Positions 6,497 to 8,526 of a DNA stretch of 8,526 nt are shown one piece after another. Under the pieces are notes generated by a model that searched no databases, was not told where the DNA came from, and worked only from the letters and a program-made list of their open reading frames with translations. Position numbers and translations under genes: made by a program. This DNA is from a virus. How positions within the stretch are numbered: the stretch's first letter is position 1; each line of letters opens with the position of its first letter. The DNA is taken from the UHGV virus genome UHGV-1374314; one strand, written 5' to 3'.

Positions 6497-7762
6497 ATGC
6501 GCTCTGTTATTGTTGCTTTTTTATTTGCCTGTTCATTCTGCGTTTCTGCTGAAACTGTTAATTTAAATAATTCATCTATTCGCTCATTTGTTCAGTGGTA
6601 TTCTTCAAAAACTGGCAAGCCTGTTATTGTTAATCCTGATATTAAAGGAAACGTAACCGTATTTAATGCTGATGTTAATCCAACAAATATTGATGATTTC
6701 TTTAAGTCTGTTCTGAATGCTAACGGTTTTGTCATGCTTTCTGGCAATCCTGCGGTAGTCTCTTTGCCGTCTAAATTACCTTCACAGATGGTTTCGGATT
6801 CCGATGATTCTGATAACCAGTCTTATGATACTTTTCCTTCTGAGCCATCTTACCAGCCAGTACCTGTGGCGCTTACGGTCAGAAATTTTAAGCTGACAAA
6901 AGTTAGATCGTCCGATGTTCAGCAACTGATTAAAATTTATCTTGATTCTAATGGTGGTGGTAATGTCGTGGATTATCCAGGCAATAACTCGCTGATTGTT
7001 TCTGCGCCTGACGAGCTGCTGCCGGTTCTGTCCGATTTTATCAATTCTGTGGATGTTGCCCGCGATCAGGTTCTCATTCAGTCGCTGATGTTTGAAACCA
7101 GCTTGTCTGATGGCGTTGATTTATCGTTTGCGGCAGGTTCTGCATCCGGTCATAAGGTTGCGGGGGGCTTTAATACTTCTGCACTGGGTAGCGCTCTTTC
7201 TACGGCGGGCGGTTCTTTTGGTATTTTTGATGGTAACGTGTTGGCGCTGTCTCTGCGTGCTGTCCAGAGTAATTCACGCTCTAAGGTGATTTCAACGCCG
7301 CGTATTCTTACTCAGTCTGGTCAGACTGGTTACATTTCCGTAGGTAAGAATGTGCCGTTTATCACCGGAAAGGTAACGGGCGAATCTGCCGGGGTAAATA
7401 ATCCGTTTCAGACTATCGAGCGTCATGATGTTGGCGTTTCTCTCAAGGTAACGCCTGTTGTCATGGGTAACGGGCAACTAGTTCTGACTATCGACACTCG
7501 CGCTGATTCAATCAGCAATGATGATCAGGCATCCGATATTATTACTAATCAGCGCCAGATTCAGACGACAGTCCAGATTAAGGATGGTCAGACGTTGTTA
7601 TTGGGGGGGCTTATCGATTCATCGTTCAGCAATGCCGAGCGTTCAGTTCCAGTTATAAGTAAAATTCCTCTTATAGGCTGGATTTTCAGTAGCAAGGCAG
7701 ACAGCAATGAACAGCGTATTATGTATATTTTGCTTACAGCACATATCATTCGTCCACTTTGA
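6497..7762 (+). CDS. gIV: Secretin gpIV (outer-membrane export channel for virion extrusion)
   Basis: Start at ATG 6497 (MRSVIVAFLFACSFCVSA, signal peptide); the track ORF 6404.. is an upstream extension overlapping gI. Strong similarity to Ff pIV throughout, e.g. GGSFGIF, NVPFITG(K/R)VTGESA, NNPFQTIER, DGQTLLLGGL, SKIPLIG. Confidence 0.95.
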   Translation: MRSVIVAFLFACSFCVSAETVNLNNSSIRSFVQWYSSKTGKPVIVNPDIKGNVTVFNADVNPTNIDDFFKSVLNANGFVMLSGNPAVVSLPSKLPSQMVSDSDDSDNQSYDTFPSEPSYQPVPVALTVRNFKLTKVRSSDVQQLIKIYLDSNGGGNVVDYPGNNSLIVSAPDELLPVLSDFINSVDVARDQVLIQSLMFETSLSDGVDLSFAAGSASGHKVAGGFNTSALGSALSTAGGSFGIFDGNVLALSLRAVQSNSRSKVISTPRILTQSGQTGYISVGKNVPFITGKVTGESAGVNNPFQTIERHDVGVSLKVTPVVMGNGQLVLTIDTRADSISNDDQASDIITNQRQIQTTVQIKDGQTLLLGGLIDSSFSNAERSVPVISKIPLIGWIFSSKADSNEQRIMYILLTAHIIRPL

Positions 7763-7803
7763 TGGATAGCGGGTAGGTGCGTGAGCCCTGCTCGCTATCC
7801 ATC
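7761..7803. other. Perfect 11-bp inverted repeat (hairpin) overlapping the gIV stop codon
   Basis: GATGGATAGCG (7761-7771) / CGCTATCCATC (7793-7803) with a 21-nt G-rich loop. No T-tract follows on the + strand. Confidence 0.5.
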
Positions 7804-7831
7804 AAATGGACATTATTGATTGGGGTAACTA

Positions 7832-8140
7832 ATGGATTCTTATGGGATTTTATCTGCTCTGGCAGAACGAACGATTACAGCGGAAGAAGCAAAAACAATG
7901 ACACTTGCAGCCAGAAGTTCTTCGGCTCAGGTAAATGAAGCATCACTTGCTCTGTTACTGATTGATAATACTCTGGATGCGATCAAAGCAGCTGCCAGTG
8001 AAGGGAAAGGATACACTTTACTTCCTTCTTATGAGATTTCTGTAAAAGCCATTGATTTAGCAGAAGAATTTTTAAGGAAACAATGCGGCTATGTTATTGA
8101 TAACCAGAATGGCGTAAGGACGGTCTATTGGTTTATATGA
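7832..8140 (+). CDS. Hypothetical protein, 102 aa, predicted largely helical
   Basis: Intact ORF with a plausible G-rich RBS upstream and balanced composition. No recognisable family. Phage or host origin uncertain. Confidence 0.5.
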   Translation: MDSYGILSALAERTITAEEAKTMTLAARSSSAQVNEASLALLLIDNTLDAIKAAASEGKGYTLLPSYEISVKAIDLAEEFLRKQCGYVIDNQNGVRTVYWFI

Positions 8141-8257
8141 TAACCCCGGACAATGACAAAACTTGCTTTTGTTAGTGTCAGGGGTTGGCCAAGCCGAACA
8201 ATTCTGTTTTTTTAGCGTTATTGCTGATTCGGCGCGGCAGCATTACGAGGAGATAAA

Positions 8258-8491
8258 ATGCAATTTTTCACATCCAGCGATACTGTAATGTTATGTGCGA
8301 AGACCTGCGATCGCTGTGGTCGCCATGCGAAGACGGTGGTAGATGACATTGAGTTCAATGAGTTTCTGTCTGTTAATCACTTAGCTGGATACGGTTCAAT
8401 TTTTGGTGACAGTAATCGCTTAAAACTGGATTTATGCCAACATTGCCTGAAAGACGTCCTGGGCCAGTGGATTACGGTCTGTGACCAATGA
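8258..8491 (+). CDS. Hypothetical small Cys-rich protein, 77 aa (possible zinc-ribbon: CxxxCxxC ... CxxC)
   Basis: Strong RBS GAGGAG 6-11 nt upstream of the ATG. Cys pattern CAKTCDRCG ... CQHC. Confidence 0.5.
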   Translation: MQFFTSSDTVMLCAKTCDRCGRHAKTVVDDIEFNEFLSVNHLAGYGSIFGDSNRLKLDLCQHCLKDVLGQWITVCDQ

Positions 8492-8526
8492 CGCCACCGG
8501 TAACGCCAGTTCCCGCCATCCTTACC

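Follow-up and report, generated by a model that had tools for sequence, protein, structure and literature searches.

The right end of the viral genome UHGV-1374314, whose 8,526 nucleotides (nt) we analysed as a whole and refer to as the window, raises two questions: do the two small open reading frames (ORFs) that follow the secretin gene gIV belong to the phage or to its host, and what might their products do? An earlier reading of the same DNA (the original prediction) had noted these two ORFs, one of them rich in cysteine, and had offered either additional phage cargo or flanking host genes as their explanation. The features needed first are the following.

6497–7762, plus strand: gIV, the secretin gene (RefSeq annotation of the identical UM146 prophage; ORF list; 79% nt identity to part of IKe gIV).
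7832–8140, plus strand: ORF-A, or h1; 102 amino acids (aa), ATG start, acidic (isoelectric point (pI) 4.7).
8247–8252, plus strand: GAGGAG, a strong Shine-Dalgarno sequence of h2, 5 nt before the ATG (read from the sequence).
8258–8491, plus strand: ORF-B, or h2; 77 aa, ATG start, acidic (pI 5.4).

The explanation that best accounts for the observations overall, and to which we assign a probability of roughly 0.6, is that h1 and h2 are accessory ('moron') genes of a UPΦ-type phage, which would encode small cytoplasmic regulators or inhibitors.

Both ORFs are real as originally described, in view of their coordinates, their matches to PHROG families and the purifying selection acting on them. 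The h1 product matches phrog_4115 (E-value 2e-68, residues 1–102 of 102) and the h2 product phrog_5435 (4.5e-46, residues 1–77 of 96), both families being annotated as 'unknown function'. Comparison of h1 with a 61%-identical Salmonella copy gave proportions of synonymous and nonsynonymous differences (pS and pN) of 0.68 and 0.21, corresponding to a ratio of nonsynonymous to synonymous rates (dN/dS) of ∼0.14, and the same comparison of h2 with a 71%-identical copy on a plasmid (protein P0008 of locus L003) gave a pS of 0.73, a pN of 0.16 and a dN/dS of ∼0.06. Because these diverged copies are under purifying selection, h1 and h2 are real protein-coding genes. Both are located on the phage plus strand in a variable cargo slot that extends from gIV, the last morphogenesis gene, to the attP hairpin. 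The Shine-Dalgarno sequence of h1 (GGGG at 7822–7825, 6 nt before the ATG) is weaker than that of h2.

Whether these genes belong to the phage depends on the limits of the prophage unit, which are set by the features of its attachment site.

8492–8526, plus strand: phage-side flank running into attP/attR (ending in GCCAGTTCCCGCCATCCTTACC), followed in UM146 by ATT and dif.
1–100, plus strand: attL/attP forked hairpin of the CTXφ style (single-stranded DNA fold of -31.1 kcal/mol, z-score -7.9).
4–14, plus strand: XerC arm GGTGCGCATAA, part of the attL/attP hairpin.
26–36, plus strand: XerD-like arm TTATGTTGAAA, part of the attL/attP hairpin, preceded by a long central region.
37–70, plus strand: GC-rich loop hairpin of attP.
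71–100, plus strand: inverted dif-like arm of attP.

The window starts with ATT, followed by the hybrid dif/attP site GGTGCGCATAA-TGTACGACTCG-TTATGTTGAAA (4–36), and corresponds to exactly one prophage unit, since its last and first positions are contiguous in the circular replicative form as well as in tandem arrays; the suggestion that the prophage might extend past the window is therefore incorrect. A 7938-bp circular Salmonella 'plasmid' (L012), which carries gIV, h1, h2 and then attP (window position 1), is the replicative form of the phage, and here the flank 8492–8526 runs into window position 1. The same flank resembles the sequence 5' of dif in a Salmonella prophage (L007). In UM146, whose prophage adjoins hipA, a perfect 28-bp dif (GGTGCGCATAATGTATATTATGTTAAAT) begins 4 nt past the equivalent of window position 8526, so that a dif site does lie downstream of the window end, as the original prediction had proposed to check. 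In HUM3355, a full unit starting at 2258981 directly follows one copy of the segment 7763–8526, whose last position is 2258980. Within a set of 5426 complete E. coli genomes, this segment was present at ≥99% identity in only 49, with a median of two copies per carrier and a maximum of 16 places, and ≥80% of the whole phage was found in one place in 47 genomes. In E. coli EC5502, the whole phage including both ORFs is tandemly repeated beside hipBA in 16 units, each containing the segment; many genes are frameshifted among these 16 places (L002, NZ_CP092647), and the record looks like a real high-copy array read via a noisy long-read assembly.

Because the window is one unit and the ORFs are the last ones before attP, h1 and h2 are almost certainly phage cargo genes. 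The proposal that they are flanking host genes or spurious ORFs has nothing in its favour other than their position at the window edge, and the tandem repetition, the presence in the replicative form, the absence from 99% of E. coli genomes and the purifying selection have already refuted it, leaving it a negligible chance; the refuting finding named in the original prediction, the same genes at this locus in prophage-free relatives, was not borne out by the 49 and 47 carriers among the 5426 genomes.

By sequence comparison, the phage is a UPΦ virus, one of a group of Lineavirus-like filamentous phages (inoviruses) that integrate at dif, and ORF-A and ORF-B are its h1 and h2, as described for UPΦ and UPφ901 by Shapiro and Putonti (2020, Virus Evol 6:veaa030; PMC7307601). 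As in UPΦ, the gene order gII, gV, gVIII, gIII, gVI, gI, gIV (ORF list and RefSeq annotation) is IKe/I2-2-like, that is, the Ff order; the region 1960–3347 (gII/gV) is 80% nt identical to a YpfΦ-type prophage of Y. pestis (L027); a dif-like site is found at the genome start (4–36), together with integration at chromosomal dif and tandem copies; and ECONIH2 (CP014667), named as a UPΦ tandem triple (PMC7307601), carries 88% of the window at 98.7% identity in 3 places. Besides gII/gV, the Y. pestis prophage shares with the window only the attP hairpin (99% identical) and a short intergenic element considered below, and no match to it was found for the morphogenesis genes. Matches to annotated phages were confined to gIV (IKe and the Erwinia PEar phages) and 48 nt of the If1 intergenic region. 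The phage combines IKe/I2-2-like morphogenesis genes with YpfΦ-like gII/gV and attP, and integrates at dif through XerCD. The two ORFs have already been published as genes of unknown function, and the literature searched contained no later characterisation of them; this part of our finding is largely a rediscovery. What is new here is the placement of h2 in a family, the separability of h1 and h2, and the conserved element between them.

Are h1 and h2 a functional unit? All 229 complete UPΦ genomes carry both genes (PMC7307601), and the two were found together in every window-type locus that we saw. Other relatives present different combinations. Four Salmonella prophages with the same core (L007, L008, L009 and L036) keep an h1-like gene and have no h2, with dif positioned ∼400 nt after the intergenic element; three loci with a UPΦ-like gIV (L033, L038 and L054) contain an 82-aa YPO2280a-like ORF instead of h1 and again no h2; on a plasmid contig (L003), an h2-like gene is present and h1 is missing; and L037 combines an intact h2 with a truncated h1 that is fused to gIV. 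Judging from these gene contents, h1 and h2 are separable, exchangeable cassettes. Since one or both are missing from relatives that share the core, each gene would be dispensable for virion production.

These arrangements bear directly on the idea that h1 and h2 act as one joint module, which we consider rather doubtful. In its favour, h1 and h2 are same-strand neighbours, and each of the 229 UPΦ genomes (PMC7307601) and of the window-type loci seen here contains the pair; relatives of h2 are fused to the toxin-binding domains of antitoxins; and no mixed pairs (h1 with a YPO2281-like ORF, or the 82-aa ORF with h2) occurred in our small sample. Yet an h1-like gene is under purifying selection without h2 in the Salmonella prophages, a plasmid and a Providencia inovirus have h2-like genes but no h1, and h2 is intact next to the truncated h1 of L037. 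Moreover, the genes are separated by a 117-nt spacer with a conserved structured element, which leaves no translational coupling, both proteins are acidic, and the h2 of the window has no C-terminal toxin-binding extension. An obligate h1-h2 toxin-antitoxin pair is accordingly unlikely. With separable genes and a conserved spacer, single deletions and tests of the element make sense, rather than treatment of the region as one operon.

The spacer itself contains a two-hairpin element of ∼100 nt.

8142–8186, plus strand: hairpin 1 of the intergenic element, a ∼20-bp stem with G-T/G-U pairs and a loop around ACTTGC; 17 pairs, nearly invariant in 14 versions.
8188–8238, plus strand: hairpin 2 of the intergenic element, a long-range stem (GGCC..GCCG / CGGC..GGC); 7 pairs.

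The two hairpins (8142–8238) have a z-score of about -4, whether folded as DNA or as RNA. Copies of the element are present in 24 viral contigs and 5 genome stretches, 29 further loci in all, for example at 3845–3945 of L003, 10313–10420 of L007 and 3001–3102 of L010, and over 14 distinct versions its mean column identity is 82%, with 24 pairs kept. In hairpin 2, the L007/L036 lineage has both partners replaced at two pairs, and L003 has three pairs converted to U-G by a change of one partner only; by virtue of its G-U pairs, the structure is plus-strand-specific. The element spans UPΦ-type, YpfΦ/CUS-type and other inoviruses as well as a plasmid contig, with its flanking genes swapped: it is preceded by h1, by the 82-aa ORF or by no gene, and followed by h2, by YPO2281-like ORFs of 58–145 aa, by a 57-aa ORF or by no gene, with ∼70 nt in most cases from the matched core of hairpin 1 to the downstream start codon. 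The version of L003 is ∼85% identical to other phage versions, and h2 of the window and of L003 are 72% identical at the nt level with synonymous sites saturated; judged from the figures for the other versions, the element looks markedly better conserved than h2 between these two loci. Scans of the region against Rfam and for consensus promoters and terminators were negative, and annotated phages contain nothing that matches the element. Because no promoter or terminator is detectable, we infer that transcription of the morphogenesis operon would read through into h1 and h2, with a separate Shine-Dalgarno sequence for the translation of each. Candidate roles for the element are a processing site, a minus-strand origin, a packaging signal and a cassette junction.

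Turning to the proteins, occurrence of h1 was confined to UPΦ-type inoviruses. Its product is an acidic alpha/beta protein, predicted to be cytoplasmic; the AlphaFold2 model has a predicted local distance difference test score (pLDDT) of 70.7. Scans of both proteins against Pfam, NCBIfam and PADLOC gave no significant match and hence no toxin family for h1; among the PADLOC models of anti-phage defence, none matched h1 and only Cas8b matched h2, at an E-value of 0.023, which we treated as noise.

For h2, a word-indexed search returned only 14 close relatives. An exhaustive HMMER profile search yielded 1238 representative clusters (50% identity) at E ≤ 1e-3, with 611 of them at E ≤ 1e-10, and a second profile search 1881 clusters at 90% identity; since the profile searches recover families of this size, h2 is not an orphan but belongs to a very large, unannotated family in phages, plasmids and bacterial genomes. 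Its members occur in 51 IMG/VR contigs that range from 7 kb (inovirus-sized) to 460 kb. The Cys pattern of the original prediction is present (C13-x3-C17-x2-C20 ... C60-x2-C63, plus C75), and over 155 family domains two CxxC knuckles are conserved (C17 96%, C20 99%, C60 100% and C63 100%), whereas C13 and C75 are not; the proposed metal site thus holds for four cysteines. The complete set of conserved residues comprises C17, D18, C20, E32, E35, G44, Y45, S47, F49, G50, D51, D58, C60, Q61 and C63, with the motif GYGSIFGD at residues 44–51 and the family form CDxC...GYGSxFGDG...CQHC. The h2 protein is therefore best described as a stand-alone domain of ∼75 aa with a predicted four-Cys zinc finger. 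Its AlphaFold2 model (pLDDT 64.6) combines a knuckle at the N-terminus with a beta-hairpin and with a C-terminal helix that starts at the second CxxC; on this low-confidence model, the fold looks more like a treble-clef-like arrangement than the zinc ribbon suggested earlier. No match to the domain was obtained in Pfam, NCBIfam, PADLOC or the Protein Data Bank (PDB): the model had no structural match in the PDB, and profile searches against PDB sequences produced nothing but spurious C2H2 or PAAR matches. We also compared h2 with the ECs_2282 zinc-binding protein from the left-end cargo of UM146, and rejected a relation between the two (hhalign probability 5%).

A four-Cys site may suggest, in line with the small phage regulators mentioned in the original prediction, a small zinc-finger DNA-binding regulator of transcription in phage or host, an assignment that we regard as unlikely. 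The conservation of the site speaks for it, as does the N-terminal place of the domain in antitoxin-like fusions, where operator-binding domains of the helix-turn-helix (HTH) or ribbon-helix-helix (RHH) type normally sit; in ParS, MbcA and TacA antitoxins, such an HTH or RHH domain is N-terminal. But the family is acidic (median pI 5.0, and 85% of 129 short members below pI 6) with Asp and Glu as the best conserved polar residues, it matches no DNA-binding family in Pfam, NCBIfam or the PDB, and close relatives such as L007 do without the gene and still lysogenise at dif; besides, the phage has other small regulator candidates next to gII, such as a 60-aa ORF at 1607–1789.

Ten to 11 of 85 longer h2 relatives have a C-terminal toxin-binding domain of Xre/MbcA/ParS antitoxins, and among the same 85 we found one TacA1, one VapB-like, one weak CcdA and two DUF4926 regions. 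A CcdA-like C-terminal tail was considered for the 102-aa Klebsiella/Salmonella relatives (P0173) and rejected, with no CcdB nearby, an SRAP-DUF2971 protein gene downstream and a Pfam CcdA E-value of 0.007 in one member. Although antitoxins such as MqsA can use a four-Cys finger, h2 itself does not have the attributes of a type II antitoxin: no toxin gene is adjacent, attP following directly and h1 matching no toxin family; h2 ends 14 residues after its last Cys without a Pfam or NCBIfam antitoxin match that would indicate a toxin-binding domain; and no similarity to TIGR03831 (YgiT_finger) or to the N-domain of MqsA was seen. The survival of h1 without h2 in Salmonella likewise bears against h2 as an antitoxin with h1 as its toxin. 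Tentatively, and at less than even odds, we propose that h2 may be a module of conflict systems that binds metal and serves in interaction or regulation.

The gene neighbourhoods of the family were surveyed at 37 downstream and 32 upstream neighbours, nearly all on viral contigs, and no partner recurred among them. On a plasmid, the h2-like gene is followed by a 77-aa coiled-coil ORF (29 nt downstream of the P0008 gene, 3962–4195 of L003), on a large phage-like contig by cpYpsA, and on Klebsiella plasmids by the gene of an SRAP-DUF2971 protein; h2-like genes are also present on Pectobacterium chromosomes. A Providencia inovirus that encodes a Rep_trans replication protein ends, ahead of attP/dif, with an h2-like gene (59% identity) followed by DUF2158. 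This gene pair is flanked by an extra forked hairpin with dif-like arms on one side and by the attP/dif junction of the phage on the other (L013 3590–3660 and 4548–4575; L015 and L016 4548–4690), and it may represent a separate mini-element or a second att structure.

The position of h2 next to the attachment site could also indicate that one or both proteins are accessory factors of Xer recombination that help in integration or excision, like XafT of TLCφ. The genes of recombination directionality factors are often located next to att sites, the end of h2 is 38 nt before the XerC arm of attP, and h2-like genes are nearest to attP in the unrelated Providencia inovirus too. The h2 family, however, is widespread in tailed and jumbo phage contigs and at plasmid and chromosomal loci away from inoviruses, relatives without h2 are integrated at dif, family scans revealed no similarity to known recombination factors, and a forked-hairpin attP of the CTXφ type needs only host XerCD (PMC4266046). 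Together, these observations make a recombination role very improbable.

Similarly small is the chance that h1 and h2 are exported virulence or fitness factors directed at the host, by analogy with ctxAB. The genes do occupy the genome position of ctxAB (PMC4266046; PMC7307601), and UPΦ is enriched in urinary isolates (PMC7307601); but neither N-terminus resembles a signal peptide or membrane segment (judged by eye from the translations), both proteins are small and acidic, and the h2 family is found in environmental phages and plasmids.

Overall, these results are most consistent with h1 and h2 as accessory genes of a UPΦ-type phage. In conflicts between host and phage or among mobile elements, their small products would serve as protein-binding regulators or inhibitors within the cytoplasm. 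In this model, h2 would be a metal-stabilised partner-binding module akin to the N-terminal modules of modular antitoxins, and neither protein would be a virion part, a secreted toxin or a recombination factor. Several points weigh against it. The assignment as small cytoplasmic regulators or inhibitors is a prediction, and read-through expression is deduced from the absence of consensus signals; the presence of both genes in all 229 UPΦ genomes is compatible with a joint function; the structure models are of modest confidence (pLDDT 70.7 and 64.6), and fold searches with them were uninformative. The two fusion proteins that were placed in context (P0211 and P0236) have no adjacent toxin gene and may not be real antitoxins, and no recurrent partner of the h2 family emerged in 37 loci (33 IMG/VR contigs and four others). 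Finally, P0008 carries a C17S exchange (KISDRCGRH), and its sequence is conserved all the same (dN/dS 0.06).

A more far-reaching version, which we think improbable, would regard the h2 domain as a new widespread mobile-element module, a metal-stabilised unit for protein binding that, alone or fused to the toxin-binding domains of antitoxins, interferes with host toxin-antitoxin or defence systems on behalf of phages and plasmids, and the two-hairpin element as a functional plus-strand element (RNA processing site, single-stranded DNA origin or packaging signal) that marks a fixed cargo-swap junction of dif-integrating inoviruses of Enterobacterales. Urinary and other clinical Enterobacterales commonly carry UPΦ prophages (PMC7307601), and h1 and h2 are the only genes of the phage without an assigned phage function; located in the cholera-toxin slot of CTXφ, they are obvious candidates for host effects. 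The placement of h2 links a phage gene to a general mobile-element module that is accessible to study in many systems, and the antitoxin fusions point to conflict biology.

Several further features of the window and its relatives were recorded, the first of which concerns the gIV stop codon.

7761–7803, plus strand: perfect-stem hairpin over the gIV stop codon (GATGGATAGCG...CGCTATCCATC), read from the sequence.

This hairpin is kept in the Salmonella relative L007 via a compensatory A-T to C-G change (GATGGCTAGCG...CGCTAGCCATC). It was not called as a terminator, and because no T-run follows, it is not a canonical one. At the left end of the window, 100–984 holds two minus-strand ORFs (100–471 and 517–984; phrog_22661 and phrog_6723, both unknown), which are probably h4/h5 of UPφ901. 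This left-end cargo is swapped in relatives for a Doc toxin (L012), for the ECs_2282 zinc-binding protein and hypotheticals (UM146), or for STM4504/CBY_0614, a PD-(D/E)XK nuclease or a 'mobilome CxxCx(11)CxxC protein'. The stretch 1043–1090 (48 nt) is 96% identical to the major intergenic region of If1, ∼225 nt after the If1 gIV stop, and contains a short hairpin (GTTCGGG...CCCGAAC) as a candidate origin or packaging element. On the minus strand, 1096–1665 is a mechanically called ORF of 189 aa, whose residues 50–189 match phrog_4174 and for which RefSeq gives a 140-aa protein in UM146; the true start is probably later, and the gene is likely h3 of UPΦ.

A site with ∼94% identity to the inner attP hairpin (window 27–98) occurs in ∼400 plasmids, most of them conjugative; the one record examined is of IncF type. 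In pKOr019_1, this attP-like site abuts a reverse-oriented STM4504/CBY_0614 gene, a cargo type that is also found at the left end of other UPΦ variants. Homologues of the left cargo of the window (27–1000, ∼82%) are present on two large plasmids. Furthermore, a YpfΦ/CUS-type inovirus (L011) resides in the large Klebsiella IncFIB/IncHI1B plasmid NZ_CP132684, with a dif-like site (GGTGCGCATAA-TGTACG-TTATGTTAAAT, 4467–4494) after its last ORF.

How does this locus compare with known systems? Canonical Ff and IKe genomes have no genes after gIV, in agreement with the literature (PMC7307601). The closest counterpart is UPφ901/UPΦ itself, which combines an IKe/I2-2-like core, gII/gV in common with YpfΦ and a dif-like site at the genome start with two novel same-strand genes after gIV and reverse-oriented ORFs beside dif (PMC7307601). 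The same paper reported no homologues of the two genes outside UPΦ, whereas the h2 family comprises at least 1238 clusters here, and it suspected an interaction of h1 with h2, which we found apart in relatives.

In YpfΦ/CUS-1, the interval from the secretin gene to attR/dif holds two small ORFs of unknown function, YPO2280a and YPO2281 (Derbise and Carniel 2014, PMC4266046), and the likeness extends to the two-hairpin spacer element (∼85% nt identity) and the 99%-identical attP hairpin. The YpfΦ/CUS-type loci (L010, L011, L027 and L046) carry an 82-aa ORF together with a 65–69-aa ORF. Identity of h1 and h2 with YPO2280a and YPO2281 was ruled out (BLASTP E-value of 3.8 for h1 against the 82-aa ORF; hhalign probability of 0.5% for the h2 profile against the 65-aa ORF), and on these comparisons the two pairs are positional analogues, not homologues. 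CTXφ carries ctxAB in the same slot (PMC4266046; PMC7307601), likewise as accessory genes after the morphogenesis and secretion genes and beside the Xer site of a dif-integrating inovirus (PMC4266046); ctxAB, however, encodes a secreted AB5 toxin with its own regulation, whereas h1 and h2 have no N-terminal signal peptide by eye and no toxin-like domain in family scans. For h2, a further likeness is to the modular type II antitoxins (ParS/MbcA/Xre-RES, TacA and VapB): in the fused relatives described above, the h2 domain is N-terminal to Xre_MbcA_ParS_C and, in single cases, to TacA1 or VapB-like regions.

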